From Escherichia phage vB_EcoS_NBD2: a DNA stretch of 51,802 nt. The position numbers and the translations under genes were made by a program. Every line of letters begins with the position of its first letter. Position 1 is the stretch's first letter. The notes beneath the pieces were generated by a model. It was not told the origin of the DNA. It searched no databases and was given only the letters and a program-made list of their open reading frames with translations. The DNA is taken from sequence record NC_031050.1; one strand, given 5' to 3'. This document shows positions 577-51,201 of this stretch, piece by piece.

Positions 577-779
577 AAAAGCACAGAATCGTTTTAGTCG
601 ATACGGTAACGGCGCTTGGCGATCCGGTCAAGTGGTATGCTGCCCAGGTTCGGGTTGCATTCTTCTGGTGGGTTACGATTCATCACTTTTCACAATTGCG
701 TGATGCGCGTTACTGGTTACACCAGAGCGGGGCAACAAAAAGAATGCTGACGGAAAAAGTGTTAAAGGTAATCGAATAG
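573..779 (+). CDS. hypothetical protein
   Basis: 68-aa ORF, ATGA start/stop overlap with upstream gene. Confidence 0.45.
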   Translation: MKKHRIVLVDTVTALGDPVKWYAAQVRVAFFWWVTIHHFSQLRDARYWLHQSGATKRMLTEKVLKVIE

Positions 780-819
780 CACGAATTGTTAAACGTGCCC
801 GATCTGATTAGGGCATAAT
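777..819 (+). promoter_or_regulatory. motif promoter (TAGCACgaaTTGTTAAAC, 22 nt, CATAAT)
   Basis: Motif 777-794, -10-like 814-819. Confidence 0.55.
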
Positions 820-850: not shown

Positions 851-1294
851 ATGCAGACTGCAAAACTCTTGGCAATCCTGAAACGCATTGATGACCTGAA
901 CGCACAGATCTTTTCTGGTAGCCTGGAAGGTGACGAACTGACGGCAATCACCAATCACCGCAATCAACTTGCATTGCAGTATATGAACGGTCTGGAAGAG
1001 GTAGAGTTAGTCAAGCCTGGTGAGCGTGTCGTTTCTGGCTTTGCTGCAACCGTCCTGGCAATCCACAAAGAATGCGGAATCCAGTTGCGCTATGCGGCAT
1101 TCATGGCTGATTCATGTGATTACACCATCGTTGGGCGAGGGGCTGAATTCATGGCATGGATTGCCAGCATCAAGGCGAAGTACAAAGAAGCGCATCCAGG
1201 TTGGATGTATGGCGCAGACACGATCGGCAATCAGCACCATTTCACAAGCTATATTGTGTCGGGCGCTTACATGGTCGATAGCACTAATTGCTAA
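851..1294 (+). CDS. hypothetical protein
   Basis: ORF 818..1294, start placed at ATG 851 after RBS aacgagg; preceded by motif promoter 777-819. Confidence 0.55.
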   Translation: MQTAKLLAILKRIDDLNAQIFSGSLEGDELTAITNHRNQLALQYMNGLEEVELVKPGERVVSGFAATVLAIHKECGIQLRYAAFMADSCDYTIVGRGAEFMAWIASIKAKYKEAHPGWMYGADTIGNQHHFTSYIVSGAYMVDSTNC

Positions 1295-1321
1295 AACAAC
1301 AATCAGGGGCTATGCAATAAT
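1279..1321 (+). promoter_or_regulatory. motif promoter (TAGCACtaaTTGCTAAAAC, 22 nt, AATAAT)
   Basis: Motif 1279-1297; -10-like 1316-1321 lies in the loop of hairpin GGGGCTAT/ATAGCCCC. Confidence 0.55.
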
Positions 1322-1590: not shown

Positions 1591-1907
1591 TGAAACGATT
1601 TTCACTACTGGCACCAATCGCACTTCTTGCAGCGCTAACCATTGCATTAACCGGATGCGACAACTCAACCCGCGTGCCAGTTGAGCAGCGCGGAAAAGTG
1701 CAGGTTAATACGGCTGAATCAGGCCGCGTGCAGGTTCGCAAGATCAGTGAATTTCGCGACGATCTGGCTTACGATGATTATCGCGGAGTGTACATCATCA
1801 CGGACACCGAAACGGGGCAAGAGTTTATCGGCGTTAGCGGCGTTGGTATCAGTGCGATCGGGCAGCACAATTGCGGTAAAAATTGCTGGCGCAAAGACGA
1901 ACGATAG
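1587..1907 (+). CDS. putative lipoprotein
   Basis: N-terminal signal peptide followed by lipobox-like LTGC; start overlaps stop of upstream gene. Confidence 0.55.
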   Translation: MMKRFSLLAPIALLAALTIALTGCDNSTRVPVEQRGKVQVNTAESGRVQVRKISEFRDDLAYDDYRGVYIITDTETGQEFIGVSGVGISAIGQHNCGKNCWRKDER

Positions 1908-1947
1908 CACGAATTGCTAAAACTCATCATCGGGGCTATGCCATAAT
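1905..1947 (+). promoter_or_regulatory. motif promoter (TAGCACgaaTTGCTAAAAC, 22 nt, CATAAT)
   Basis: Motif 1905-1923, -10-like 1942-1947 within hairpin. Confidence 0.55.
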
Positions 1948-2557: not shown

Positions 2558-2658
2558 GCACGCTCGCACCCATTATCATCACAATCTGCGTGTGCCTCGC
2601 TATCGTCGTGATCTCAAGGCTCATCGTAACGGCTATCCGCATCAAGCGGGATGAATAG
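2554..2658 (+). CDS. small hydrophobic peptide (34 aa)
   Basis: ATG 2554 overlapping upstream stop; translation MSTLAPIIITICVCLAIVVISRLIVTAIRIKRDE is one predicted TM helix; below the ORF-track length cutoff. Confidence 0.35.
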   Translation: MSTLAPIIITICVCLAIVVISRLIVTAIRIKRDE

Positions 2659-2698
2659 CACGAAATGACAAAACGGCTGGCTCACTGATTGGTATACT
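2656..2698 (+). promoter_or_regulatory. motif promoter, degenerate (TAGCACgaaATGACAAAAC, 22 nt, TGgTATACT)
   Basis: Motif 2656-2674, extended -10 2690-2698. Confidence 0.5.
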
Positions 2699-2955: not shown

Positions 2956-3333
2956 ATGAAACGCATTAAAGTTAAATGCCTGGCAGTTGACCGTTACATT
3001 TCCGAGTTTTACACCCCTGGCAAGTGGTACACCCTGGAAGTTATTGAAAAGCTGGATATTGCCCAGCAGACCCGCGAGATTCCAACCGATCGCGATGGTT
3101 GCTCACTTCGTGTTAGCCGTGAGCGCGGCGACAATTACCGCTATCGTGTTGCGGGCTATGAAGGCACGCTGTTTGACTCGAAGCCGTGGCGCTTCCGCAA
3201 GAAGAATCATTTTTGCGTTGATATCGACTACAGCAAATGCGCTCGCTCAATCCGTCGCCAGGCTCGCAACGTAGCCAAAGAGCTTTATTCGTGCGGCAAT
3301 CTGGAGAAGATCGCGCGCAGCTATGGAAAATAG
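2956..3333 (+). CDS. hypothetical protein
   Basis: 125-aa ORF, RBS aagga. Confidence 0.55.
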   Translation: MKRIKVKCLAVDRYISEFYTPGKWYTLEVIEKLDIAQQTREIPTDRDGCSLRVSRERGDNYRYRVAGYEGTLFDSKPWRFRKKNHFCVDIDYSKCARSIRRQARNVAKELYSCGNLEKIARSYGK

Positions 3334-3373
3334 CACTTTTTGTTAAAACGCCGAATCGGGGTTGCGCTATAGT
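3331..3373 (+). promoter_or_regulatory. motif promoter (TAGCACtttTTGTTAAAAC, 22 nt, TATAGT)
   Basis: Motif 3331-3349, -10 3368-3373. Confidence 0.55.
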
Positions 3374-4132: not shown

Positions 4133-4339
4133 ATGCAGATCTACACATCGCCAGGCGGCGCGCAATATCTTGTTTTTCGCGGGCTGGTATATTTCAAGCC
4201 AGTAGACGGCGGCGAGGTTAGAATGTCAGATATGGGGGTTGGTCGATTCCTTGACCTGATCGCCAAAGGATTCATGACATACAGCCGCACCGTCAACCCA
4301 GCATTAGCGTATAGGCCGGAGCACTGGAAACAGCACTAA
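4133..4339 (+). CDS. hypothetical protein
   Basis: 68-aa ORF directly after upstream stop. Confidence 0.45.
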   Translation: MQIYTSPGGAQYLVFRGLVYFKPVDGGEVRMSDMGVGRFLDLIAKGFMTYSRTVNPALAYRPEHWKQH

Positions 4340-4373
4340 TTGCTAAAACTTGCCCAGGGGCATTTGATAGAAT
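4331..4373 (+). promoter_or_regulatory. motif promoter (CAGCACtaaTTGCTAAAAC, 22 nt, TAGAAT)
   Basis: Motif 4331-4349, -10 4368-4373. Confidence 0.5.
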
Positions 4374-4413: not shown

Positions 4414-5004
4414 ATGACTATTCAACGATACACAATGCGAAGTGTAAATGGAGAGCCTGAAATGGTGGCTCACGGCGCAGGGGCGTATGTAACCTACGCA
4501 TCACACGCCGAAGAATTGCTCCGCGTACAGGGCGAATTAGACGCCTTAAAAGACGGCTTAAAACGTCAAATTTTCGCGCCACTTGAAAAAGCCATGATGA
4601 ATGCGCTTATTAAAACAGCAATGCAGGCAACGCATACCGTCTACACCGTCAACCCATGCGACAAGCTGACTTCCGAGCGAGTGCGTGAAATTATGGATGC
4701 CCAGATCGGAGCGGGGGTAATCAGCCTGGCGGAAGTTGAAGAGCGCGGTTTCGCAACTGGCGGATTTATGGCAATCCCAATAACACGACCAGATCCAGAA
4801 TCCCTGCTTTGCATCAAATCGGACGCCAAAAGCTTCAAGGCTGGAGAGTCTTACCAGTGCGAGGCCAACAAAGACGGCGCTTTGTTCGTAACGCAAGATG
4901 AATTCGTTTCCGATCTGAATGAAGATGATTACTGGCACGTCACGGACGGCGGCGCGTATTACATCGTCGAAACGATCGCGGGTAATGCCTACTTTAAGAA
5001 GTAG
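4414..5004 (+). CDS. hypothetical protein
   Basis: ORF 4372..5004 trimmed to ATG 4414 after RBS aacgagg; preceded by motif promoter. Confidence 0.55.
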   Translation: MTIQRYTMRSVNGEPEMVAHGAGAYVTYASHAEELLRVQGELDALKDGLKRQIFAPLEKAMMNALIKTAMQATHTVYTVNPCDKLTSERVREIMDAQIGAGVISLAEVEERGFATGGFMAIPITRPDPESLLCIKSDAKSFKAGESYQCEANKDGALFVTQDEFVSDLNEDDYWHVTDGGAYYIVETIAGNAYFKK

Positions 5005-5044
5005 CACTTTTTGTTAAACGGGCACGTGTGCTGACTGGTATCAT
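5002..5044 (+). promoter_or_regulatory. motif promoter (TAGCACtttTTGTTAAAC, 22 nt, TGgTATCAT)
   Basis: Motif 5002-5019, extended -10 5036-5044. Confidence 0.55.
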
Positions 5045-5075
5045 GTGCCCACACCAACCAAATGGAGAGGCACCA

Positions 5076-6325: not shown

Positions 6326-6326
6326 A

Positions 6327-6369
6327 TAGCACTTTTTGTTAAACCCTCTTCGGAGGGTTTTGTTATAGT
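6327..6369 (+). promoter_or_regulatory. motif promoter overlapping a terminator hairpin (22 nt, TATAGT)
   Basis: Motif 6327-6344, hairpin CCCTC-ttcg-GAGGG 6344-6357, -10 6364-6369. Confidence 0.55.
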
Positions 6370-6915: not shown

Positions 6916-7183
6916 AAAGGCCAACATTTCACGAAGCAATGATTATTGCTTTACTTATGCTTACGAGCGCGGCGGCATTACGCGCAATCTTATTCTTCGC
7001 ATTCATACAGGGCGCAAAATGAAAACTTTCCTGATCTTCATGGCTGGCTCAATCATGCTGACAGCAACAACCGAAGGCGTAACGCCGTTAATCGCAGGCG
7101 GCCTTATCGCCTGGGCTTATTACCGCTGCGGGCACGATGACGGATTCAAGGCCGGAAAGCGAAACATCTTAACTGGCAAATAG
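6905..7183 (+). CDS. hypothetical protein, possibly membrane
   Basis: 92-aa ORF with hydrophobic C-terminal half; start uncertain (alternative ATG about 7019). Confidence 0.35.
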   Translation: MQHEKANISRSNDYCFTYAYERGGITRNLILRIHTGRKMKTFLIFMAGSIMLTATTEGVTPLIAGGLIAWAYYRCGHDDGFKAGKRNILTGK

Positions 7184-7223
7184 CACGATTTGTTAAAAGG
7201 GCATTCATCCTGATTGGTATAAT
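7181..7223 (+). promoter_or_regulatory. motif promoter (TAGCACgatTTGTTAAAAG, 22 nt, TGgTATAAT)
   Basis: Motif 7181-7199, extended -10 7215-7223. Confidence 0.6.
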
Positions 7224-7786: not shown

Positions 7787-8218
7787 ATGAAATTACGTTG
7801 CCTTTTTGTTTCAACCTCCATGTATTCCGCCGTAGCCGCTCGCCTGTTTGATGTTGGCGCGGAGTATCTGGCAAAGCCTCGCCCTGGTTCGCAGATTGAG
7901 GCGGTCGATATCATCACCAAAAACCCAGCGCGAGAGGGTAACGTTGTGTTAACCGGATTCGTGAACGAGTACACCGGAAACGTTGACATCGTGGCTGGTG
8001 GTGGAATTGTCGCCACTTTCACAAGTCCGAAGGCATCGCGCCTGGCCAAGTCAGAAAAGCGAGTGCCACACAAAGCAGACGGCACGGGGCAAACTGACAA
8101 GCGCCGTTTCCGCCGCGTTTGCCGCCAGTATTGCAAACTTCGCTTCATCAACCCTGCGTTTACGTGCCCAGAGTCACACCGCCAAATGCAAAAGCTGGCG
8201 CAATTCCACCGCCGATAG
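7787..8218 (+). CDS. hypothetical protein
   Basis: ORF 7712..8218 trimmed to ATG 7787 after RBS agaggaa; preceded by canonical sigma70-like promoter. Confidence 0.5.
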   Translation: MKLRCLFVSTSMYSAVAARLFDVGAEYLAKPRPGSQIEAVDIITKNPAREGNVVLTGFVNEYTGNVDIVAGGGIVATFTSPKASRLAKSEKRVPHKADGTGQTDKRRFRRVCRQYCKLRFINPAFTCPESHRQMQKLAQFHRR

Positions 8219-8258
8219 CACGAATTGCTAAAACTCCCCTGGGGTAAGCTGTTATAGT
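8216..8258 (+). promoter_or_regulatory. motif promoter (TAGCACgaaTTGCTAAAAC, 22 nt, TATAGT)
   Basis: Motif 8216-8234, -10 8253-8258. Confidence 0.55.
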
Positions 8259-9423: not shown

Positions 9424-9511
9424 GGAAGGATGGCAGAGAGGACGATTGCGCGCGGTTGCTAACCGTGAAGCCGGAAACGGCTCAAGGGTTCGAATCCCTT
9501 TCTTTCCACCA
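9424..9511 (+). tRNA. tRNA-Ser (anticodon GCU), class II with long variable arm, CCA encoded
   Basis: Hand-folded cloverleaf: acceptor GGAAGGA/TCTTTCC (one G-U), U8, D-stem GCAG/TTGC, anticodon stem CGCGG/CCGTG, loop TTGCTAA (U33, GCT, A37), variable arm GCCG-gaaa-CGGC, T-arm AAGGG-TTCGAAT-CCCTT, discriminator A, CCA. Confidence 0.8.
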
Positions 9512-16017: not shown

Positions 16018-16045
16018 TTGACCGTTTAGCAAAAAGTGCTATTAT
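16018..16045 (+). promoter_or_regulatory. strong promoter for major capsid gene (TTGACC-16-TGcTATTAT); contains motif dyad in inverse orientation
   Basis: -35 16018-16023, TG 16037-16038, -10 16040-16045; TAGCA-aaaag-TGCTA at 16027-16041. Confidence 0.6.
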
Positions 16046-25718: not shown

Positions 25719-25766
25719 ACGCCTGTATAATGAAACTTCACTAAATAGCACGAAAGGTTAAGCACT

Positions 25767-29399: not shown

Positions 29400-29732
29400 T
29401 TAGATGATTTTGTTGGGATCTGGTAGGTAACGGGAAGTCTGTGATGCGATCATGTCATCGCGCCCCATCTTTCCTTTGCCAAAGGCGAACTTCATGGAGT
29501 AGTTGCCCTGGTCTTTGTAGCACATCACGCTAACGTTTTTTCGAAGGTGCTTATCGAAAATCACGTTGCTTGATTCCTGAATGGTGATTTCTTTATTCTG
29601 GCAATCAAGATTAAAAGTAACCTCGCCAGTTAGTGAGAGGCGGCTTGCATCAACCGGATAGCCAATATTAATGTTTAAAGCCATAGCATTTAAAGGCAAC
29701 AGGAAGAGCACAGCGAGCATGATTTTTTTCAT
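29400..29732 (-). CDS. secreted small protein (candidate superinfection exclusion or receptor-blocking protein)
   Basis: Signal peptide MKKIMLAVLFLLPLNAMA; RBS acgagga; lies just downstream of J on the opposite strand. Confidence 0.45.
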   Translation of the reverse strand: MKKIMLAVLFLLPLNAMALNINIGYPVDASRLSLTGEVTFNLDCQNKEITIQESSNVIFDKHLRKNVSVMCYKDQGNYSMKFAFGKGKMGRDDMIASQTSRYLPDPNKII

Positions 29733-29763: not shown

Positions 29764-29806
29764 AGTATAGCCCCATTTGCGGGGCTTGTTTTAGCAATTC
29801 GTGCGG
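29764..29806 (-). promoter_or_regulatory. motif promoter on - strand (CCGCACgaaTTGCTAAAAC, 22 nt, TATACT)
   Basis: Reverse complement of 29788-29806 is the motif; -10 is reverse complement of 29764-29769. Confidence 0.45.
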
Positions 29807-31216: not shown

Positions 31217-31244
31217 TTGACGAATCAAACCAATCGCGTATACT
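31217..31244 (+). promoter_or_regulatory. sigma70-like promoter TTGACG-16-TATACT for recombination operon
   Basis: Hexamers 31217-31222 and 31239-31244. Confidence 0.5.
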
Positions 31245-31276: not shown

Positions 31277-32335
31277 ATGACACCTACCAAACCGCAAGCG
31301 GATTTTTTCTGGTTCACAAACGATGAAATGCCGAACGACTTTTATCACGATAAAGAAGCCTGGACGTTCGACTATGTTTCCGGTTCAAGCCTGGGTAAAA
31401 TTCACTCATCATGCCTGGCAAAGTGGCGCTTCGAAGAGAATGAGCCAACGGCGGCGCTGGAGTTCGGCACACAGGCGCACACCAACTTTGAAAGCAACGA
31501 GCTATTCGCATCAACCTACCGACGCGCCCCGTTCGTTGAAGATTTCAAGGATGCTATCACTTCGCAAGCAGCATTCGCGGCTAAATTGAAAAGCTTCGGC
31601 CTGACAGGTACAAGCGGGAAGCAATATCCAGAGCTTTGCAAAATATACGCTGATTGCGGTGAAGATCTTAACGTAATGTGGATTGAAGATCTGATCGCGC
31701 AATCAAAGGCGGCGCACGATGGCGTTGAGTTGGTAAAGGCCGAAGATTATGATGCCTGTGTTTCAATGCGTAAGGTGCTGGAGTCTATACCGGAATACGC
31801 ACAACTCATGAACGATCCGGCAGCGATGCACGAGCTTTCATTGTTCGGCAAAATAAACGGCGTGAACGTCAAAGTTCGCCTGGATTACTGCGCAACAATC
31901 AGCGATCCTGAAATGATTAAGTTGCTGGGCTATAACCCAGAGATTAACCCAGAGATTGTGCTGATTCTTGACTATAAGACAACGACCAGCGCCAACCCTC
32001 ACGAGTTCGATCGAAAGGCGTTTGATCTGGGCTATTACTTGAAGATGGCTTTGCAGCGTGATTTGTTTGTCAATGTGTTTGAAGAAACGCGCCCCGTCGC
32101 AGTTGTCCTACTAACCCAGGAAAAGAAAGCGCCATTCTTGCCTCTGGCTCGACCAATGACGAAAGAGCAGATCATTCACGGGCGCAAGCAGTACATGAGC
32201 GTTATTCACCAGTACGAGATCAGCAGCCGTGATGATGTTTGGCCTTCTTACGCAAACGGCGCGCCATTCGTTCACCTGCAAACGCCGGATTACATCAAGC
32301 GCCAACATCCTGATATTTACGGCGAAAACAAATAG
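31277..32335 (+). CDS. PD-(D/E)xK-family recombination exonuclease
   Basis: Motifs VRLDY and ILDYKTT consistent with PD-(D/E)xK nuclease core; ORF 31217..32335 trimmed to ATG 31277 (RBS gaggat); precedes Erf-like and SSB genes. Confidence 0.5.
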   Translation: MTPTKPQADFFWFTNDEMPNDFYHDKEAWTFDYVSGSSLGKIHSSCLAKWRFEENEPTAALEFGTQAHTNFESNELFASTYRRAPFVEDFKDAITSQAAFAAKLKSFGLTGTSGKQYPELCKIYADCGEDLNVMWIEDLIAQSKAAHDGVELVKAEDYDACVSMRKVLESIPEYAQLMNDPAAMHELSLFGKINGVNVKVRLDYCATISDPEMIKLLGYNPEINPEIVLILDYKTTTSANPHEFDRKAFDLGYYLKMALQRDLFVNVFEETRPVAVVLLTQEKKAPFLPLARPMTKEQIIHGRKQYMSVIHQYEISSRDDVWPSYANGAPFVHLQTPDYIKRQHPDIYGENK

Positions 32336-32403
32336 CACTAAAAGCTAAACAAAAAGAGGCTCATACGGTATAATGAGCCTCAATCAAACAAACAAAGAAG
32401 GTA

Positions 32404-33606: not shown

Positions 33607-33637
33607 AAAGAAAAGGAGCCTTTCGGCTCCTTTTTTT
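33607..33637. terminator. bidirectional intrinsic terminator (GGAGCC-tttc-GGCTCC)
   Basis: A-rich upstream, T7 downstream, between convergent ssb and tail fibre genes. Confidence 0.7.
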
Positions 33638-35933
33638 ATTTCGCAGTAAGCGCTGCAACCAACGCCTTCAACTCTTCAACATCGCTTTCCAGTTTTTCGA
33701 TCCTTAAATCCTTCTCCTCATCCTTTTTCTTTAACTCCTTGAATGCCTCAACGTAAAGCGCAGATAGGGCAGAATAATCAACGCCCAGAGGTTTTTCTAT
33801 CTCCCTGCATTCCTTATCAAGCACCCCCTTATAATCAGTTTCCGTTACCGCTTCCGGCAGAATCTTTTTAACATCCTGAGCGATAACACCAGCCTTTCTC
33901 ACAGTGTCCTGGATCGTGGTGTGCATTGAATAAGTCACGCCGTTAAGCTGGCAGATCTTATCAAGTGCGCTTACCACTGGCTTAATCCAGAATTTCGCCC
34001 TTTCATCAGACGTACTGGTGAAGGTTGTGGCTCGACATTCACCAGTAGCACCGTTTAGCGTTAACTGCTGACCTGAAGCGCCAGTACCGACGTTATCAGA
34101 TCGCAGGTTAAGCATCTGTGTATCGTTAGAATAGATCACGGCGCGGTTTTTTCCGCTAGTGTTCCGTAACCATAAGTGGGTGTTTGATGTCCCAGCACCG
34201 CCACTAATGTAAACGCTCGATCCGTTAACGAAAAGGTTAGCCGTTTCAGTATCTTTTCCGGCAAGCCTGATTCTGTCGCTAAGAGTTATGTTTGACGAGT
34301 GAGTATAGTTATGGAAAACCATATCATCCGTGGTGTTTGAAGGGTTTCCAATATATCCAGTATTCTTTGATAGATCGTTAAACAAGATATAGTGGGAATA
34401 ACCAGCCGTCGCTGGCCTAATCGCAATAGACGCCTCCGGCGATGAAGTTGCGATCTTTGAACTGTTAAAGTTTACGTCTTGCGCCTCAACAGTCAACCTT
34501 CCCCCACCAATGTAAGTGGAACCCTTAGAGATAATGCTCGTATATCCAGCGTGGAATCTCAAGTTTCCGCCACCAATCTGATCGGAGTTCATTCCGTCGC
34601 AAATTATCCTTGCGTCATAGTCATACTTTCCGCCGTAGTGAAAATCAACGTAAGATGCAACGTTCGGGTTTTTAATCCCAACTTCAATATTCGCTGGGGC
34701 TGGAGTCAAGGAGTTGAATGTTACGTAATTCTCCTCTGTAATGGCTATTGTTCTGGGAACCCCTGCTCCGTCACGCTTAATCCACTCAACAGACCCGTTT
34801 GCGTTTGCTCTGTTTTCGCTTGTTACAATCGTTGTGCCATCAGCCCTGTTTCTCCTGGCAACTAATGATCCAGACGGTGCGGAATCATCACTATTTCGCC
34901 TAATCTCCAAAGCGTTATTAAGATACAGGTTTTGGAATGTTGGGGAGTTACCAACGCCAAGCTCAAGGTTATTCCTTGATGTCTCTTTGTTCGCCACGTC
35001 AGAAAGGTTATTAGCCTTCTTCAACTGGTTATCAGGGTTAGCGCTAGCCGCTCTATCCGCCTCCGTTTTTGCCCGATCCGCTTGCTGCGTTGCCGTGGCA
35101 GCCGATGCCGCCGCAGCAACCTTGCTGGAGTTTGCGTTAGTCTCTGACGTTTTGGCGTTAGTTTCTGACGTTTTGGCAGCAGTTGCAGATCCAGAAGCCG
35201 CACTTGCTGAACCAGCCGCCGCCGTCTGCGATGCCGCCGCAGCAACCTTGCTGGAGTTTGCGTTAGTCTCTGACGTTTTGGCGTTAGTCTCTGACGTTTT
35301 GGCAGCAGTTGCAGACCCAGAAGCCGCACTTGCTGAACCAGCCGCCGAAGTTGCAGAAGATGCAGCCGCAGTGCGAGAAGTTCCCGCCGCAGTTTCAGAA
35401 GCTTTGGCGTTAGTCTCTGAGGTCTTAGCCGCCGTCTGTGATGCCGCCGCCGCCGTCTGTGATGCCTTCGACGCATTCTCTGACGCTTTCGAGTTGGTTT
35501 CAGAGGTTTTGGCGTTGGTCGCAGCGGTGCTGGCCGTTTGTGCATCTGCCTTTACCTGGTTGCCAATTGCAACGATACGCTCCCAATCGAAGTTTTGGAA
35601 AAACTCGATCGCATCTTCGATTACGGTTTCTTTGCTTTGGTAGTAACGTAGCGTTTCCGCCACATCCTGCGCCAGCCCGTCAACTGTGATGGAATCGTGC
35701 AACAAGATCACATACTTCGTGCCAGCCGCCACAACTGCGCCATCCGTAGCAGTTGCCCGCATTTCGGTTGGGCTAACGATTGATGAGATAGTGCAGATCG
35801 TTAGCGGTGCAGTTTGAAAAATCATGGTTGCGCCAACGCGAACAAGAGACAGCTTGTCTTGCCAGTTGGTGCCAACCCCCACAATAACGCCCTGGGCATT
35901 TAGCGAGGCCGTGCCCGTTCTGTAAATAGCCAT
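33636..35933 (-). CDS. tail fibre protein with C-terminal intramolecular chaperone-like domain
   Basis: 765 aa; internal Ala/Ser/Thr-rich repeats (KTSETNA units); C-terminal segment with coiled-coil end (EKDLRIEKLESDVEELKALVAALTAK). Confidence 0.65.
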   Translation of the reverse strand: MAIYRTGTASLNAQGVIVGVGTNWQDKLSLVRVGATMIFQTAPLTICTISSIVSPTEMRATATDGAVVAAGTKYVILLHDSITVDGLAQDVAETLRYYQSKETVIEDAIEFFQNFDWERIVAIGNQVKADAQTASTAATNAKTSETNSKASENASKASQTAAAASQTAAKTSETNAKASETAAGTSRTAAASSATSAAGSASAASGSATAAKTSETNAKTSETNANSSKVAAAASQTAAAGSASAASGSATAAKTSETNAKTSETNANSSKVAAAASAATATQQADRAKTEADRAASANPDNQLKKANNLSDVANKETSRNNLELGVGNSPTFQNLYLNNALEIRRNSDDSAPSGSLVARRNRADGTTIVTSENRANANGSVEWIKRDGAGVPRTIAITEENYVTFNSLTPAPANIEVGIKNPNVASYVDFHYGGKYDYDARIICDGMNSDQIGGGNLRFHAGYTSIISKGSTYIGGGRLTVEAQDVNFNSSKIATSSPEASIAIRPATAGYSHYILFNDLSKNTGYIGNPSNTTDDMVFHNYTHSSNITLSDRIRLAGKDTETANLFVNGSSVYISGGAGTSNTHLWLRNTSGKNRAVIYSNDTQMLNLRSDNVGTGASGQQLTLNGATGECRATTFTSTSDERAKFWIKPVVSALDKICQLNGVTYSMHTTIQDTVRKAGVIAQDVKKILPEAVTETDYKGVLDKECREIEKPLGVDYSALSALYVEAFKELKKKDEEKDLRIEKLESDVEELKALVAALTAK
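35104..35355 (-). repeat. in-frame tandem duplication (2 x 126 bp) inside tail fibre gene, each unit containing a 2 x 21-bp sub-repeat
   Basis: Copy 1 starts 35104, copy 2 starts 35230, near identical; encodes repeated KTSETNA-type units. Confidence 0.8.
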
Positions 35934-35944
35934 TTGTCAATCCT

Positions 35945-35975
35945 TCTGTTTGTTAATAGCACGAATTGCTAAAGG
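35945..35975 (-). promoter_or_regulatory. motif-containing candidate promoter for - strand tail fibre gene
   Basis: Motif TAGCACgaaTTGCTAAA at 35956-35973; on - strand it supplies gTGcTATTAA extended -10-like sequence about 20 nt before the start. Confidence 0.4.
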
Positions 35976-36027: not shown

Positions 36028-36963
36028 TCACTCCGCAGAGTCAATAAGATCCTGCGCGTTAAATAGTTGCCGCCGCATCCCTGTTTTGAAGTCCGATCCG
36101 TTCGGCACGATAACTTTCAACTCCCGATCATCTGCCATGTAAAGCGTTTGCAGGTCATCAGCAAGGCACGCAACGCGCAATTCCCGCTCTCCCTTGTAAC
36201 GATACGCCACGATCTCAAGGTTGCTTGCATCAGTACAAACCCAGACTTCCTGATTGGTTGCGAAGTTCACCCGCTCGCCATCAGCCCAATCATTCACCAG
36301 GTAGATCGCGCCCTCACTCTCTCCGACTTTTATCACCGCTCCCCGCGTGTAATCCTTTGCAAGAAACGATCGGCTTCCATCCTCGAAGGCAAACATTATG
36401 TTGCACATTTCATCATCAAGGCCGTCATCATGCACCATATGGCACGGCAACGCGTGGATAAACTCATCAGACCCATCAGGACGCGATTTAACTCCTACGC
36501 TGTACGATTCGCCGTATAAACCTTCAAAGACCGTTAGAGGCGTGCTTGAGCGCAATTCTGTGCGGCTCATTACTTCAATGCAGGCCTCGTGATCAATCTG
36601 TTTCCCAAACGTGTAGCCGTTGTCTCTGGTTGCCCGCTTATTTGCCTTAACGCGATACTCTTGCGGAACCTTACCCAGAAAGCGCCCCAGGATGTTAATC
36701 ACTTCACTGTACGGCTCGCCAGTTAAGCGCATCATCCAGCCAATGCCCTTATCCGCTCCGCAACTGTTACAGTAAGCGCCGCCGTCGCCAGGCTCTTCAA
36801 GTTTATCAGTCCAGCGGAATCGGTCTTTACCGCCGCATGACGGGCAACTCTGGTGTTTTTTGTTGAACACGATTGATGGCACGCCGCAAACAGACTGCAA
36901 AGCCTCACGCCAAAGGCCTTTCATGTACGGCAATACTTCTTCTTTCTGAAACATTTCATTCAT
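36028..36963 (-). CDS. DNA primase (zinc-ribbon plus Toprim-like)
   Basis: N-terminal CPSCGGKDRF...CNSCG zinc ribbon followed by an acidic-residue-rich domain. Confidence 0.6.
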   Translation of the reverse strand: MNEMFQKEEVLPYMKGLWREALQSVCGVPSIVFNKKHQSCPSCGGKDRFRWTDKLEEPGDGGAYCNSCGADKGIGWMMRLTGEPYSEVINILGRFLGKVPQEYRVKANKRATRDNGYTFGKQIDHEACIEVMSRTELRSSTPLTVFEGLYGESYSVGVKSRPDGSDEFIHALPCHMVHDDGLDDEMCNIMFAFEDGSRSFLAKDYTRGAVIKVGESEGAIYLVNDWADGERVNFATNQEVWVCTDASNLEIVAYRYKGERELRVACLADDLQTLYMADDRELKVIVPNGSDFKTGMRRQLFNAQDLIDSAE

Positions 36964-37017
36964 TGCTTTTGCTCCGGCAATAAAAAAGGTTGCACCGATT
37001 ATGGCACAACCTCTGGC

Positions 37018-37494
37018 TTATTCTTTAGCTTTTAGTGCTGCCTCACGCTCGCGCTTAATCCGTTTCCATGATGGTTGTTCCGGCTTGTGGGCTAACTCAT
37101 CCTCACGAACCACACGCATCATTTCACGCTTTTTGCATCGCACTGTTAATGGCTTGCCGTTGCCGTCGAAGGTGAGATCTGGTCGGCACCATGTAGCGCG
37201 AAAGCCCTTAGCCCCATTTCGCTTATATGCGTTGTGCGCCTTCTGCGCCCCGCGCGCGGAAATCATGCCGTTTTTAATCCAGATGGTGAGCAGTGAGTTT
37301 GAGATCTTCAACTCACGGCAAACGTTGGCCTTCGAGCCGTAAAACTCGATAAGCATTTCAAGGCGGGCACGCAATCCGGCCTTTACTTCATCTTTCAGAA
37401 CGTAGTAGCCTGTAGGCCGCTTGCGCTTCTTCTTGTCTGCGCCGCGCTGCGTTCCGTTGTTCCCGTTAATGGCTCGCTTGTCAACTTCAATCAT
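37018..37494 (-). CDS. HTH DNA-binding protein, putative transcriptional regulator
   Basis: Predicted helix-turn-helix around ANVCRELKISNSLLTIWIKNG; basic N- and C-termini. Confidence 0.45.
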   Translation of the reverse strand: MIEVDKRAINGNNGTQRGADKKKRKRPTGYYVLKDEVKAGLRARLEMLIEFYGSKANVCRELKISNSLLTIWIKNGMISARGAQKAHNAYKRNGAKGFRATWCRPDLTFDGNGKPLTVRCKKREMMRVVREDELAHKPEQPSWKRIKREREAALKAKE

Positions 37495-37505
37495 AAATCC
37501 CCCGA

Positions 37506-37547
37506 TAGCACTTTTTGTTAAACATTCTATTCGATAGCGTGTATTAT
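37506..37547 (+). promoter_or_regulatory. motif promoter (TAGCACtttTTGTTAAAC, 21 nt, TATTAT) in divergent intergenic region
   Basis: Motif 37506-37523, -10 37542-37547. Confidence 0.5.
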
Positions 37548-37585
37548 AGCCGTAATCGAACGAACCTCAAAGGCATTTAATCACC

Positions 37586-39661
37586 ATGAAAATTAAGAGC
37601 ATCAAGAAACAAATTGCAGAGTTGGGCGAAGCCAAAATAAAGGAAATTCAAGAGGCCTACACCTTCAACGGCGTTGTGCCTTATGCGTATCAATGCGTGA
37701 TGTTTGACGAGATCGGGAAGCGGATCGGAAAGTATCAGCACCCATTCTTTGTTAAAGCCTCCGTATCGGCTGGCAAAACGATTGGCTTCGCGATGGTCTG
37801 CAAGCGCCTTAGCCAGATGATCAGTGATAAATTCCCAAAGGGGTTGCCCGCGATGATTCTTGCGCGCCAGGGCGACATTGTGGCGCAGGATAGCGAAGAG
37901 ATCACAAACTTCGGCGTTCCAAATAGCGTTTACTGCGCAGGCCTAAACACAAAATCGGCATATTTCCCCATTATCGTTGGTTCAGAGGGAACCGTTGCGA
38001 ATGGTCTGTTTAAGGCGCTTGGCGATTTCGTTCCATTCGTGCTGGGCATTGATGAATGCCACCAGGTTGATTGGGAAGATCTTGCAGATTCGATCGACAA
38101 GAAAGAAAGCTATGAAGAAATGAGCCGCCCGAAGGATGAGGCATACATGATTAACGGCGAAGTATGTGAGCCAGGGATCAAGATTTCAAGCCTGCTTGAG
38201 CAGATGAATACCGTTGCACCAGGCGCAGGCCGCGCGCAGTACACCGTAATCATTCGCACCCTGCAAGAGCGCTGCAAGCGCGTGCATGGTAAAGAGCTTC
38301 GCATCTTCGGAATGACGGGATCGGAGTTCAGGGGAACAACCCCCATTCTGGTTGAGAACATGAAACTGCCTGGCTTCTGGCGTGAGCAGGTAACGAACAT
38401 CGACACGAATTATCTTATCGAATTCGGTTCAGTTGTTCCCACTGTGTTTGGCGGCACGGAAGGCCTGGGCTATGACTTGAGCGAGTTTAAGGCATCCGGT
38501 CAGGATGGTACGGCAGACTTTAGCGCAGCCGAAATGAAGAAGATGGAAAAGAAAATCCACGATAACGCCAGCATGACAAAGCGGATCATTGAAGCGGTTG
38601 TGAAGGAGGCTCAAAACAGAAACGGAGTGCTGATCACTTGCTCTGGGCAGCGCCACTGCAAAGAGGCCGCAAGCTATCTTCCACCGGATGCAACTTACGC
38701 CATCATCACGGAAAAGACCGGAACAAAGCAGCGCCAGCAGATTTTAGAGGATGCCAACAAGGGCAAGATAAAGTACATTTTCCAGGTTGTGGCGCTAACA
38801 ACTGGCGTGAACGTTCCATTCTGGGATTTCTCTGTCATACTCCGCAAGATCGGAAGCCTCACCCTTCTGATTCAGTTGCTGGGGCGCGGGATGCGATTGT
38901 TGAAGCCGTGGCAGAAGTTGCCGCCTTATAGCATGGTTAAGGAAGATCACCTTGTTTGGGATTTCGCCGGAACGATGGACGAATTAGGGCAGCTTTACTT
39001 TGATCCGATTCTGGAGGAGGCGCAGTATCAACGCCGATTCGACTCGAAGAAGGAGCCGAAGAAGTGCCCGATTTGCGGAACGGAAAACAGTTTCTTTGCC
39101 CGTCGCTGCATCAAGAAGGATGGGAACGGAAACCGCTGTGAGCACTTCTGGAAGTCTCGCGAGTGTGAAGATCAGATCGATAACCGAACAGGCGAAGTGC
39201 TTGTGAAGGGCTGCGGCACGCAAAATGACATTGTAGCGCGAATCTGTAGGCATTGTGATGTTAGCTTGAAAGATCCTAACGAGAATCTAACAGGCAAGGC
39301 GTACACTAAAAACGATTGGTGCGAAGTGCTTGATTTCAGTGTTGGTCTAACCAGAAATCAAACGGGCATCATCTACACTTACAGTCTGCGTGACAATATG
39401 GGCGTTGAGTTCACGGCCTATGAGAAGTTTTTCCCAGAGTCACAGGCGCAGATTTGCGGCACACTCTGGAAGAAGAAAGGCGTTGAGCCTCACGTTGCAG
39501 ACAGTAGGATCTCAAAGTTAATGGGGGCTTACCGAAGCGCACGGCTAATCATGCAAAACGTGCATCACATCATGAAGCCAGTACGCGTGACACATCGCAA
39601 GAATGGCAAGGGCGAGGATATCATTTCCCGCAAAGACTTTGGTATTGAGGTAAACGTATGA
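37586..39661 (+). CDS. SF2 DExH-box DNA helicase with C-terminal zinc ribbons
   Basis: Walker A SVSAGKT, Walker B/DECH in GIDECHQV, C-terminal CxxC pairs. Confidence 0.75.
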   Translation: MKIKSIKKQIAELGEAKIKEIQEAYTFNGVVPYAYQCVMFDEIGKRIGKYQHPFFVKASVSAGKTIGFAMVCKRLSQMISDKFPKGLPAMILARQGDIVAQDSEEITNFGVPNSVYCAGLNTKSAYFPIIVGSEGTVANGLFKALGDFVPFVLGIDECHQVDWEDLADSIDKKESYEEMSRPKDEAYMINGEVCEPGIKISSLLEQMNTVAPGAGRAQYTVIIRTLQERCKRVHGKELRIFGMTGSEFRGTTPILVENMKLPGFWREQVTNIDTNYLIEFGSVVPTVFGGTEGLGYDLSEFKASGQDGTADFSAAEMKKMEKKIHDNASMTKRIIEAVVKEAQNRNGVLITCSGQRHCKEAASYLPPDATYAIITEKTGTKQRQQILEDANKGKIKYIFQVVALTTGVNVPFWDFSVILRKIGSLTLLIQLLGRGMRLLKPWQKLPPYSMVKEDHLVWDFAGTMDELGQLYFDPILEEAQYQRRFDSKKEPKKCPICGTENSFFARRCIKKDGNGNRCEHFWKSRECEDQIDNRTGEVLVKGCGTQNDIVARICRHCDVSLKDPNENLTGKAYTKNDWCEVLDFSVGLTRNQTGIIYTYSLRDNMGVEFTAYEKFFPESQAQICGTLWKKKGVEPHVADSRISKLMGAYRSARLIMQNVHHIMKPVRVTHRKNGKGEDIISRKDFGIEVNV

Positions 39662-40077
39662 TCACCGATAAAGGCGAATATCTTGAGTATTACCAGGCTA
39701 ACCCGCTGGACACGTGGAAAGAGGACAAACACCAGGTTGATTGCGTGGCATGGCTGCGCTATCACTACCCGAACCTTTTATTCTGGCACACAGTCAACGA
39801 AGGGAAAAAGCATATCAATTCCGCCCTTCGTGATGAGCAGGCGGGGCTAAAAAAGGGCGTGAGCGACTTCGTAATCCTGATTGGTCATCACGATCGCAAG
39901 TACGCATTTGCAGCGATTGAGTTGAAGAGAACCAACAAGAGCGGCAAGGCCAAAGCCTCACCAGTTAGCAAAGAGCAGAAAGCTTTCTTGCTTGACGTTC
40001 GCGAGCGCGGAGGATTCGCGGCGGTTGCATACGGTCTGGATCAGTTTAAATTAGCGATCGAAGATATGTTGAAATAG
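39658..40077 (+). CDS. VRR-NUC domain nuclease
   Basis: 139 aa with D...E.K arrangement (DFVILIG...AIELKR) typical of VRR-NUC. Confidence 0.55.
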   Translation: MITDKGEYLEYYQANPLDTWKEDKHQVDCVAWLRYHYPNLLFWHTVNEGKKHINSALRDEQAGLKKGVSDFVILIGHHDRKYAFAAIELKRTNKSGKAKASPVSKEQKAFLLDVRERGGFAAVAYGLDQFKLAIEDMLK

Positions 40078-40117
40078 CACGAATTGCTAAACACGTGCCG
40101 GAGCAATCCGGCATAAT
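40075..40117 (+). promoter_or_regulatory. motif promoter (TAGCACgaaTTGCTAAAC, 22 nt, CATAAT)
   Basis: Motif 40075-40092, hairpin GCCGGA-gcaa-TCCGGC, -10 40112-40117. Confidence 0.55.
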
Positions 40118-40877: not shown

Positions 40878-41108
40878 ATGCGAGATCGCAACGTTAGACT
40901 GAATGAGATCGGCCTGAAATGTTTATTTGTTGGCCTTGTTTGCGCACAGCTTGAAATGGCTGGATTCACTGGAGATGCCTTCAAGCTGGCAAACTCTCTT
41001 GATATGAGCTTTGAAGAGATAGCGCCGAAGGATATCATTGAATGGGGCGCGCTAATCGCCAAAGACCTTGAAGAGTTCAAGGCTGAAAACCCCGAAGAGT
41101 TCGAATAG
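40878..41108 (+). CDS. hypothetical acidic protein
   Basis: ORF 40839..41108 trimmed to ATG 40878; acidic C-terminus. Confidence 0.4.
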   Translation: MRDRNVRLNEIGLKCLFVGLVCAQLEMAGFTGDAFKLANSLDMSFEEIAPKDIIEWGALIAKDLEEFKAENPEEFE

Positions 41109-41148
41109 CACTAATTGCTAAACATACCCGCCGCCGTGCGGGTATAAT
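41106..41148 (+). promoter_or_regulatory. motif promoter (TAGCACtaaTTGCTAAAC, 22 nt, TATAAT)
   Basis: Motif 41106-41123, -10 41143-41148. Confidence 0.6.
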
Positions 41149-41989: not shown

Positions 41990-43147
41990 TTGAAAATGCA
42001 ACGCAAAATTTCAGATGAGCAGTTAATCGCAGAGCGAGAATCAGGCAAAACACAGCGCCAGATCGCGGAAGAGTACGGCATGAATCAGCGCACAGTTGAG
42101 CAGCGTTGCGCACGCCTGGCGAAGAAAGGCCACGGGCACGGTAACAGCACTGTTAGCCGCCATGTGCCGGACGGGTTCGCAGTAAAGGGCACGTCAACCA
42201 TGATTCGCGCGAATGGCGAAGAGGTGATCCGATGGGTTAAGACCGATCAGGATCGCGAGAAGTTAGCAGCCATGATGGATGCGGCTATTGATGCGTTTTG
42301 CGAAGAGTTGCCGCGAGCAGCAGCACAGCCAGCCCCACTGGTTCACAACTGGAAAGAAGATCAGCTTGCTCTTTATCCGGTCTTTGACCTGCACATTGGC
42401 GCTATGGCTCATAAGCACGAGTGCGGCGAAAACTACAGCACTGACATTTCAGAAAAGGTGCTGGGAGACTTCTTCAACTACGCCGTAAACGTAGCGCCGG
42501 AAGCGAAAAAAGCAGTTCTGTTAATCGGCGGTGACTTCCTTCACTCTGACGGCCTGGACGCTGTAACACCTGCAAGCGGTCACGTTCTCGATCAGGACTC
42601 ACGCTACGCTAAACTTGTGCATGTTGCGATCCGCTCCACTCGCCGCGCAGTTGCAAAAATGCTGGACAAGCACGCAGAGGTTGAGATCCAGATCATCGAG
42701 GGGAACCATGACCAGGCGGGCATGATTTGGCTTCGTGCTGCAATGGCTGCATTCTATGAAGATGAGCCGCGCGTCACCGTTGACGTTAGCCCAATGATTC
42801 TGCACCGGACGAAGTGGGGCAAAACGCTGTTAGGATACACTCACGGGCACACGATGAAGAAAGCAGAAACGCGCCTTGCGGCGATGGCTACGGACTTCCG
42901 CGAAGAGTTCGGCACCAGCAAATACATTTACACCCACTCTGGGCACTGGCACCACCAGACGATCACAGAGGGCACTTTAGGGATTGATGAAGTGCATGGG
43001 CAGTTAGGCGCAAAAGATGCCTACGCAGCGCGCGGCGGCTGGCGCTCATATCGTCAAGCGGCGGTGATCGTCTACTCAAAAGAGTTTGGCGAAATCGGGC
43101 GTTTCGTGTATCGTCCAGAAATGGCAGGAAATAGCACGAAAAGCTAA
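41990..43147 (+). CDS. HTH domain fused to calcineurin-like metallophosphoesterase
   Basis: N-terminal HTH-like ESGKTQRQIAEEYGMNQRTVEQ; metallophosphatase motifs DLHIG, GGDFLHSDG, EGNHD, HGH, GHWHH in order. Confidence 0.6.
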   Translation: MKMQRKISDEQLIAERESGKTQRQIAEEYGMNQRTVEQRCARLAKKGHGHGNSTVSRHVPDGFAVKGTSTMIRANGEEVIRWVKTDQDREKLAAMMDAAIDAFCEELPRAAAQPAPLVHNWKEDQLALYPVFDLHIGAMAHKHECGENYSTDISEKVLGDFFNYAVNVAPEAKKAVLLIGGDFLHSDGLDAVTPASGHVLDQDSRYAKLVHVAIRSTRRAVAKMLDKHAEVEIQIIEGNHDQAGMIWLRAAMAAFYEDEPRVTVDVSPMILHRTKWGKTLLGYTHGHTMKKAETRLAAMATDFREEFGTSKYIYTHSGHWHHQTITEGTLGIDEVHGQLGAKDAYAARGGWRSYRQAAVIVYSKEFGEIGRFVYRPEMAGNSTKS

Positions 43148-43174
43148 ACAATTGCCGGAGTAATCCGGCATACT
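43132..43174 (+). promoter_or_regulatory. motif promoter, degenerate (TAGCACgaaAAGCTAAAC, 22 nt, CATACT)
   Basis: Motif 43132-43149, -10 43169-43174. Confidence 0.45.
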
Positions 43175-43534: not shown

Positions 43535-43615
43535 GTGCTTCTCGTTTGTCAAAAAGTGCTGTATTATTGGCCTTACTTAATTAAATCATTGACAACTATT
43601 TCAAAGGGGGATCTC

Positions 43616-47490: not shown

Positions 47491-47534
47491 ATAATAACAA
47501 AACCCGCCGAAGCTGGTTTAACAAAAAGTGCTAT
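47491..47534 (-). promoter_or_regulatory. motif promoter on - strand (22-23 nt, TATTAT-like)
   Basis: Reverse complement of 47515-47534 is AATAGCACtttTTGTTAAAC. Confidence 0.45.
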
Positions 47535-49291: not shown

Positions 49292-49336
49292 ATTATGCCA
49301 AATCACGCCGGATTAGTTTTAACAAAAAGTGCTATT
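49292..49336 (-). promoter_or_regulatory. motif promoter on - strand (22 nt, CATAAT)
   Basis: Reverse complement of 49316-49336 is the motif; -10 is reverse complement of 49292-49297. Confidence 0.5.
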
Positions 49337-49893: not shown

Positions 49894-49938
49894 ATAATAA
49901 CAAAAGCACGAACCGCCGTTTTAGCAATTCGTGCTATT
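49894..49938 (-). promoter_or_regulatory. motif promoter on - strand (22 nt, TATTAT)
   Basis: Reverse complement of 49918-49938 is AATAGCACgaaTTGCTAAAAC; -10 is reverse complement of 49894-49899. Confidence 0.5.
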
Positions 49939-51156: not shown

Positions 51157-51201
51157 ATAGTAACCCATCTGCGCTGATCGGTTTTAGCAAAAAGTGCTAT
51201 T
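51157..51201 (-). promoter_or_regulatory. motif promoter on - strand for the right-end early operon
   Basis: Reverse complement of 51181-51201 is AATAGCACtttTTGCTAAAAC. Confidence 0.45.

Follow-up and report, generated by a model that had tools for sequence, protein, structure and literature searches.

Introduction

The 51,802-nt sequence of Escherichia phage vB_EcoS_NBD2 (NC_031050.1, one strand read 5' to 3'; this whole stretch is called the window here) carries repeated copies of a short box of the form TAGCA-N5-TGCTA, one of them in the spacer between the helicase gene and a divergent gene for a small helix-turn-helix (HTH) protein. Which protein reads this box? An earlier note had picked the HTH protein, taking the box for a dyad in the promoter of the HTH gene itself and suggesting autoregulation. 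The answer proposed here, held tentatively and at somewhat less than an even chance, is that host activators of the MarA/SoxS/Rob/RamA type read the box as a class II marbox. What the note said of the gene itself holds: the 158-aa protein on the - strand is real, with its own Shine-Dalgarno (SD) sequence and a Cro-like fold, and its open reading frame (ORF) lies between primase and helicase, divergent from the latter over a 91-bp spacer (Table 1).

The repeated box and its -10 hexamer

That the motif is repeated above chance was confirmed, as the window holds nine exact copies of TAGCA-N5-TGCTA against 0.06 expected, and 21 copies when up to one mismatch is allowed, where chance would give 1.05. 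Its description as a dyad had to be given up. When the copies are aligned with their flanks, a directional form of 20 bp emerges, aATAGCAC[T/G]WWTTG[C/T]TAAA[a/c], in which the GCAC and TAAA elements are invariant, position 2 is almost always A and position 14 almost always T. Position 1 can be T or C, position 13 alternates between C and T, and only A or T occurs at positions 8-9. The symmetry is broken at conserved positions, with C6 opposite T10 and A0 opposite A16, while the invariant G3 has C or T as its partner. Because the conserved positions 0, 6, 10 and 16 are asymmetric, the box is not a true dyad and not a symmetric operator. The orientation of the cassette copies tracks the direction of the neighbouring genes.

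Twenty forward cassettes were found in the window, most of them with 72-80 nt from the start of the box to the start codon. The order of elements, over about 95 bp, is the box, 18 bp often containing a GC-rich hairpin, the -10 hexamer, a CA-rich leader (catcgaaacgaaac-like), the SD sequence and the start codon. The -10-like hexamer lies 21-22 nt past TGCTA and is preceded by TGn in 12 of the 20. There is no -35 hexamer, and the 3' end of the box sits in its place; TTGCTA itself was ruled out as a -35 hexamer, since the spacer would then be 22 nt. The same spacing was found in a family-wide set of 431 unique copies taken from 83 T1-like loci, among them T1, Rtp and 80 relatives: a -10 hexamer is in range for 93% of them, 21-23 nt after TGCTA for 91% and exactly 22 nt after it for 69%, while random positions gave 23% and a flat distribution. 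The repeat as a promoter cassette, made of box and -10 with no real -35, is thus well supported whichever protein reads the box. Canonical intergenic sigma-70 promoters of the early region number three in the window, at 10-38, at 31217-31244 (exonuclease) and at the HTH gene.

The element has been described before in phage TLS as a "21-nt direct repeat" (aaATAGCACnnnTTGnTAAAA), with 18 intergenic copies oriented with transcription and about 76 nt from start codons; it also occurs in T1, Rtp and Rogue1, and only three sigma-70-like promoters were found in TLS (PMC11447400). In consensus, orientation and distance of about 76 nt, these repeats are the same element as the box of the window. The TLS paper posed the function as an open question (stoperator, enhancer or UP element), and the fixed -10, the marbox match and the link to the gp23 promoter described below are not part of it (PMC11447400). 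A scan of viral contigs for ATAGCACNNNTTGNTAAA returned mostly single chance matches; the loci with multiple copies were all on T1-sized contigs, leaving the scan uninformative outside the family. Within the window, the copy at 29518 (TAGCACATCACGCTA) was set aside as a chance match, as it falls within an ORF and has neither the AAA flank nor a well-placed -10.

Two further features of the cassettes may be recorded. In at least 11 of them the upstream gene ends, in frame, on the TAG that opens the box (777, 1905, 3331, 5002, 7181, 8216, 32333, 40075, 41106, and on the - strand 47533 and 49334), so that the end of one gene is fused to the next promoter with no spacer. In addition, a stable GC-rich hairpin lies between box and start site in about 13 of 19 cassettes, with folding free energies (dG) of -12 to -19 kcal/mol and z scores of -3 to -7.5; examples are found at 1306-1327, 1932-1953, 5020-5050, 32356-32381 and 40095-40114. 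The hairpins mostly hold the -10 in the loop or the 3' arm, and the stems differ in sequence with the pairing kept. In read-through RNA, such a hairpin would be the 3' hairpin of the upstream cistron, and it could act as a partial terminator, an RNA stabiliser or a structure of the promoter DNA.

Agreement with the marbox

The box fits the binding site of the MarA family in its sequence and degeneracy as well as in its orientation and spacing. The marbox consensus AYNGCACNNWNNRYYAAAY has nine exact matches in the window against 0.02 expected, and the form GCAHWWWWTGYYAAA, a consensus derived from chromatin immunoprecipitation sequencing and quoted in PMC6900184, has 11 exact matches, with 23 at one mismatch or less against 1.63 expected. 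The copies conform to AYnGCACnnWnnRYYAAAYn or to GCAHWWWWTGYYAAA, the last Y being absent in about half of them, and the box beside the HTH gene is exact in both forms over 37505-37523. Moreover, the variation of the phage box stays within the degeneracy of the marbox, positions 1 and 13 being Y and positions 8-9 being W. The cassette at 29786-29805 has ACCGCAC for ATAGCAC; the outer TA of the dyad is gone there and the fit to AYnGCAC is kept. The apparent dyad is largely the pseudo-symmetry inherent in the marbox (GCA...TGY) together with the Y and A positions.

The site is non-palindromic and has two different elements, GCAC and C/TAAA, as these are defined in PMC9638938. MarA-family proteins bind such sites as monomers, and RamA does likewise in Klebsiella and other enterics (PMC6900184). 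Class II promoters are those with a forward marbox overlapping the -35 (PMC6900184, PMC9638938), and micF, with the box centred at -41.5, is the textbook class II promoter of SoxS, MarA and Rob (PMC9638938). The mar site of E. coli MG1655 is ATGCCACGTTTTGCTAAATC and its micF box ACAGCACTGAATGTCAAAAC, the latter ending 18 bp ahead of the -10 TAGAAT; the phage box ends 18 bp from its -10 in most copies, equal to micF. On predicted transcript starts, the phage boxes are forward, overlap the -35 and are centred near -41.5. A chance agreement of about 22 bits in the right orientation and register is very unlikely, even given the number of transcription factor motifs available for comparison. The consensus sequences of Fis, CRP, IHF and DnaA did not fit the box in a comparison by eye.

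Enteric bacteria carry MarA, SoxS and Rob, and Klebsiella also has RamA. A relative encoded by the phage was sought as well. The tblastn search of MarA, SoxS and Rob against the window gave a best E value of 0.87 (the MarA query was checked against MG1655), and no AraC-type domain was found in a Pfam scan of 103 early-region ORFs; on these two results a phage-encoded MarA homologue was dropped. Literature searches, whose coverage was incomplete, found no paper linking the marbox or the MarA family to T1-like phages.

The helicase/HTH spacer as a proposed promoter switch

The copy between the helicase and HTH genes is a real one. Its dyad-like part (TAGCACTTTTTGTTA) extends over 37506-37520 and has one mismatch to the dyad. 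The earlier note had placed the motif in the promoter of the HTH gene. The box faces the + strand and forms, together with a TATTAT hexamer 21 nt past its TGTTA, the promoter of the helicase gene, in which the -35 position is taken by TAAACA, the 3' end of the box. The HTH gene has a separate sigma-70 promoter on the other strand (Table 1), with 10 of 12 matches. The two -10 hexamers overlap face to face on opposite strands. The HTH transcript runs through the box before reaching its own SD sequence, the box lying downstream of the HTH start site in the DNA of the 5' untranslated region. Because the -10 region is shared and the transcript crosses the box, occupancy of the box by any binder should repress the HTH gene. 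The suggested autoregulation therefore survives in part: a filled box should shut the HTH gene, and this amounts to feedback only if the HTH protein is the binder.

This arrangement is kept in 49 of 53 unique upstream regions, in which the sigma-70 promoter stands 76-82 nt and the reversed box 28-31 nt before the ATG of the gp23-family gene, the family to which the HTH gene belongs (see below). P57 of TLS, one of the only three canonical promoters of that phage, is the counterpart of the HTH gene promoter. A promoter that needs no activator, being one of three such both here and in TLS, fits an immediate-early regulator. In many relatives (L141, L159 and L172-L195 among the loci compared) the shared -10 of gp23 and helicase is the palindrome TGTATAATACA, an extended -10 both ways; apart from it, no group-specific palindrome that might be an operator of the regulator's own was seen near the gp23 promoter.

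The 3' end of the HTH gene is equally compact. A degenerate box (GCAGCACTAAAAGCTAAAGA), probably that of the primase promoter, lies within its last codons (EAALKAKE*). The primase promoter has its -10, CATAAT (37003-36998), in the loop of the terminator hairpin that follows, 22 nt past the degenerate box, and the primase SD sequence and ATG come next. Terminator of the HTH gene and promoter of the primase gene are thus superimposed, and the pair of degenerate box and terminator equals DR10 and T57 of TLS.

The gp23 family and its variable recognition helix

The 158-aa protein belongs to the T1 gp23/Rtp52 family (PHROG 2856, E 1.8e-79), which has matches in 823 phage records and essentially none outside T1-like contigs. 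T1 ST23 and rtp52 occupy the same place between primase and helicase, and the synteny is kept in divergent relatives; the gene is a core gene of T1-like phages. Gene and box are found together throughout Drexlerviridae. The family is already known, its annotation being "transcriptional regulator". Several T1-like genomes labelled Campylobacter, Pseudomonas or Vibrio (MG0656xx, ON843697, Vibrio phage Vc1) have gp23 proteins that group with those of enteric T1-like phages, and their non-enteric host labels may be unreliable. A comparison with non-enteric hosts (Vibrio phage Vc1, Pseudomonas phage Motto, "Campylobacter" phages) was dropped, as the labels look unreliable and the genomes are close to those of enteric phages.

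An AlphaFold2 model (pLDDT, the predicted local distance difference test, 86.6) shows a basic N-terminal arm of low confidence and high conservation, then a helical domain formed by residues 35-92, and a compact domain at the C-terminus. Residues ~35-92 are a Cro/XRE-type HTH domain with the five helices of the Cro/cI-type fold. The Pfam scan gave no significant match for this protein (best Phage_NinH, 13.2 bits against a cut-off of 29.8); certain gp23 homologues have precomputed P22_Cro/YdaS hits. The invariant residues fall in the N-terminal arm (DKRxxNGNNGTxRGxDK) and the C-terminal domain (GFRAxFxRPDLxFD), and the turn and recognition helix of the HTH form the least conserved segment of the family. 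Over the 80 loci, recognition helices such as NSLLTIW, IQVVQQW, HQTIQQW, PQAVEEW, TKVVTGW and HATLYEW were found, among others, with an equal box consensus in all groups. In five more divergent phages, whose protein is 36-40% identical to that of the window, the helices are GLRMVLW, PLEYREM, HGCIEQC, RHRVARW and INTVKQW; the box is identical, and the -10 spacing and the local architecture are unchanged.

A helix that reads an invariant sequence is not expected to vary in this way, which disfavours the idea that the HTH recognises the dyad. An asymmetric, invariant box and a helix that varies almost fully are not what a Cro/cI regulator and its operator would show. To judge from these alignments, the variable HTH helix of the family probably does not read the box.

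Which protein reads the box

The host reading is favoured because of the marbox match, the asymmetry of the box, its invariance over the divergence of gp23 and the lack of a phage MarA-like protein. In the mechanism that we propose, a monomer of a host MarA-family activator would sit on the forward box, centred near -41, one of its two HTH motifs contacting GCAC and the other TAAA, and would bring E-sigma70 to the -10. In the spacer between the helicase and HTH genes, the activator would draw RNA polymerase away from the HTH promoter and towards that of the helicase. The gp23-family protein, with its Cro fold, would be an immediate-early phage regulator with a target of its own.

Several points weigh against a host reader. 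MarA and SoxS are scarce, and Rob largely sequestered, in unstressed cells, which sits badly with the fast lytic growth of a phage whose early genes would nearly all depend on them. In a Keio screen with the T1-like phage LL5, marA, soxS and rob were not reported; the three are redundant. The host itself, probably Klebsiella, is taken from the phages that are 98.5-98.7% identical over 4 kb round the locus and is not given by the window. The phage box varies less than the marbox consensus allows, with A2 and T14 near-invariant and the last marbox Y lost, so that the constraint on it may be more specific than MarA-family binding. Two promoter classes, with the sole HTH regulator made from a promoter that needs no activator, are the classic layout of a phage-encoded activator. 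Finally, should the HTH helix of gp23 not read DNA, its conserved N-terminal arm and C-terminal domain still could.

In one alternative, the box is bound by the gp23-family protein, which would activate the ~20 cassettes from a site at about -42, in the manner of lambda cI at PRM; made first, it would turn on the helicase and other delayed-early genes and, through the face-to-face promoters, repress its own. The centre of the 15-mer at -42 is cI-like, the fold is of the Cro/cI type, gene and motif accompany each other throughout Drexlerviridae, and the gene is among the three with a canonical promoter, here and in TLS. The conserved geometry at the spacer agrees with feedback, and the strongly conserved arm and C-terminal domain could supply invariant contacts to DNA. 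The Pfam scan of the early-region ORFs found no other dedicated regulator, the 158-aa ORF being the sole dedicated HTH regulator-like gene detected there. This much of the earlier note's proposal stands, namely that its candidate is the only such gene, is core and is linked to the motif. Against this alternative, the box has no symmetric-dimer form, the recognition helix is the least conserved part and is swapped almost wholly in relatives with an unchanged box, and some 22 bits of marbox with matching orientation and the 18-bp spacing of micF would have to be coincidence, which is very unlikely. We consider this alternative possible and less likely than a host reader.

Both proteins might be involved, with a host MarA-family protein activating early and the Cro-fold protein competing later through the TAGCA/TGCTA pseudo-dyad, which would bring early shut-off and an altered occupancy of reversed boxes before the capsid and tail-fibre genes. 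The near-invariant A2 and T14 exceed what a marbox needs and complete a 5-bp inverted repeat, reversed boxes do lie in repressing positions ahead of late genes, and the gene with its Cro-like fold is at the switch locus. This model is more complex, it inherits the recognition-helix problem of a gp23 reader, and the cassette at 29786-29805 lacks the outer TA; we take it to be distinctly improbable. Last, the box may have no dedicated protein at all. It is A/T-rich and in the position of an UP element, as the TLS authors proposed (PMC11447400), and it could be a substitute for the -35 touched by RNA polymerase, the 12 of 20 cassettes with an extended -10 needing no -35. It could also act as an RNA hairpin, UAGCA-loop-UGCUA, at the 3' end of the cistron, the following GC-rich hairpin being a processing or stabilising signal; C or T at position 13 preserves a G-C or G-U pair, the box begins at the upstream stop codon in at least 11 cassettes, and strong hairpins come after it. 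In its invariant G, C, A, C and G the box is unlike an UP element, the RNA stem is just 4-5 bp and is broken by AAAAGCTA variants, and an RNA role leaves the asymmetric conserved flanks and the fixed -10 distance unaccounted for, all of which makes a box with no dedicated reader very improbable.

Comparison with known systems

The nearest known systems are the class II promoters of MarA, SoxS, Rob and RamA (micF, lpxC, lpxL, rfaY). Like the phage cassettes, they have a forward, asymmetric 20-bp box with GCAC and YAAA that overlaps an absent or weak -35, leaves 18 bp to the -10 and has its centre near -41. The phage boxes, putative targets of the host factors, differ in standing on a virulent genome and in being used about 20 times as a general early promoter. 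They are much less degenerate, usually open with the stop codon of the preceding gene, and are followed by a hairpin that encloses the -10.

The spacer recalls lambda OR, at which cI bound to OR2 (-42) turns PRM on and PR off. In both, a gene for a Cro/cI-fold protein lies at divergent, mutually exclusive promoters, and an activator site at -42 goes with activation of one promoter and repression of the other. In the phage of the window, the -10 hexamers overlap face to face, a single asymmetric box takes the place of three dyad operators, the phage is virulent and the binder is probably not the Cro-fold protein. The middle promoters of T4, served by MotA and AsiA, resemble the phage class in having a sigma-70 -10, no -35 and an upstream activator box. 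The MotA box has its centre at -30 and leaves about 12 bp (11-13 bp) to the -10, as against 18 bp from the end of the phage box (22 nt from TGCTA), and no relatives of MotA or AsiA were found in the Pfam scan of early-region ORFs, so that the cassettes are not placed among MotA promoters. The TLS authors compared their repeat to the stoperators of mycobacteriophage L5 (PMC11447400). These also have many asymmetric intergenic copies in one orientation relative to transcription. They serve a prophage repressor as blocks to elongation and have no -10 linked to them, whereas 91% of the phage boxes have a fixed -10 and the phage is lytic; the boxes share the orientation of L5-type stoperators and not their promoter-free action. 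Neither the fixed -10, the class II marbox reading, the face-to-face switch nor the mismatch of variable helix and invariant box was found in the searchable literature.

Reversed and degenerate boxes

Some copies stand outside the forward cassettes. One lies reversed in the spacer of a promoter just upstream of the major capsid gene (Table 1), and its GTGC gives the TG of the extended -10. The geometry is a repressing one, and it resembles the repression of E. coli pbpG from a marbox in the promoter spacer. The design is present in T1 and absent from Rtp; DR7 of TLS is probably its counterpart. A second box, also reversed, precedes the ATG of the tail-fibre gene (35933, - strand) by 24 nt. It lies just past the primase terminator and is kept in all T1-like genomes examined, 20-28 nt upstream of the start (T1 ~34903, Rtp ~33763, L204 ~2877). 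No good promoter could be drawn round it.

Two degenerate copies were also seen. On the - strand, GCACTTTTTGACAAA followed by TGTATTAT (43545-43559) stands after a terminator and before the holin/lysis genes, in reversed orientation, and is not conserved in T1 or Rtp. The forward copy ATAGCACGAAAGGTTAAGCA (25745-25764) lies directly before the gene for a 1200-aa tail-tip (J-like) protein, has a poor -10 and corresponds to DR8 of TLS.

Genome context

The phage of the window is T1-like and a member of Drexlerviridae. The 4 kb round the locus are 98.5-98.7% identical to Klebsiella phages vB_KaeD_HazelMika and KLB19, with more distant similarity to many Escherichia T1-like phages, and the gene order of T1 and Rtp is matched (ERF, SSB, tail fibre, primase, small regulator, helicase, VRR-NUC, Dam). 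A tRNA-Ser gene (anticodon GCU) at 9424-9511 marks the end of the left early region, with ARAGORN and Rfam in agreement (50.6 bits). The tail-fibre protein (33636-35933, - strand) has a long Ala/Ser/Thr-rich stretch with near-exact block repeats (...AAKTSETNAKTSETNANSSKVAAAASQTAAAGSASAASGSATAAKTSETN...) and a C-terminal end akin to an intramolecular chaperone. An Mre11-like "DNA repair exonuclease" (41990-43147; PHROG 704, T1 gp16 family) has a start that looks like an HTH (...GKTQRQIAEEYGMNQRTVEQR...); this start is probably the source of weak HTH_23/24/28 Pfam hits, and the exonuclease is possibly a second phage protein with a DNA-binding HTH.

Table 1. Positions of boxes, promoters and genes in the window
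Feature	Positions	Strand	Remark
HTH gene, 158 aa	37018-37494	-	ATG at 37494, SD GGGGGA
Helicase promoter box, ATAGCACTTTTTGTTAAACA	37505-37524	+	Exact to both marbox forms; pseudo-dyad at 37506-37520
Helicase promoter -10, TATTAT	37542-37547	+	21 nt past box TGTTA
HTH gene sigma-70 promoter	37543-37570	-	TTGAGG (37570-37565), 16-nt spacer, TATAAT (37548-37543); 10/12 matches
Helicase gene	37586-39661	+	Helicase_C/ResIII; start 80 nt past box start
Terminator hairpin of HTH gene	36985-37014	-	Hairpin prediction; dG -16.7, then T-run
Degenerate box, GCAGCACTAAAAGCTAAAGA	37022-37041	-	In last HTH codons
Primase gene	36028-36963	-	Zn_Ribbon_Prim
Cassette box	776-795	+	-10 CATAAT at 22 nt
Cassette box	1278-1297	+	
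Cassette box	1904-1923	+	
Cassette box, ATAGCACGAAATGACAAAAC	2655-2674	+	
Cassette box	3330-3349	+	
Cassette box	4330-4349	+	ACAGCAC variant
Cassette box	5001-5020	+	
Cassette box	6326-6345	+	
Cassette box	7180-7199	+	
Cassette box	8215-8234	+	
Cassette box, ACCGCACGAATTGCTAAAAC	29786-29805	-	Hairpin kept; TATACT at 22 nt
Cassette box	32332-32351	+	ERF gene
Cassette box	40074-40093	+	Dam methylase gene
Cassette box	41105-41124	+	
Cassette box	43131-43150	+	
Cassette box	47515-47534	-	- strand genes
Cassette box	49316-49335	-	- strand genes
Cassette box	49918-49937	-	- strand genes
Cassette box	51181-51200	-	- strand genes
Reversed box, capsid promoter	16023-16042	-	In spacer of + strand promoter TTGACC-16-TATTAT (16018-16045)
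Reversed box, tail-fibre gene	35956-35975	+	Reversed relative to the gene; 24 nt upstream of ATG

Implications

Extended to the family, the reading of the box by a host activator would mean that T1-like phages wire nearly all their early promoters to MarA, SoxS, Rob or RamA, that the reversed boxes are placed to repress the capsid and tail-fibre genes, that early expression reads the drug, bile or oxidative-stress state of the cell, and that gp23 is not the reader. In this picture the early-to-late switch could come about as a limited or short-lived activator of the host is lost or titrated, its DNA being broken down while phage copies increase. We put this wider picture well short of an even chance. 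As the box can be read as an activator box with no -35, indistinguishable from a class II marbox, the proposal is testable with existing reagents. If it is false and gp23 is the reader, a phage protein would have converged on the marbox, which would also be worth knowing. If it is true, salicylate, bile or paraquat should alter phage gene expression, and the ~95-bp cassette would serve as a compact promoter element responsive to these stress regulators. A host reader would explain the function of the T1-like repeat, previously an open question, and the growth of common E. coli and Klebsiella phages, many of them proposed for therapy, would be tied to the regulators of multidrug resistance.

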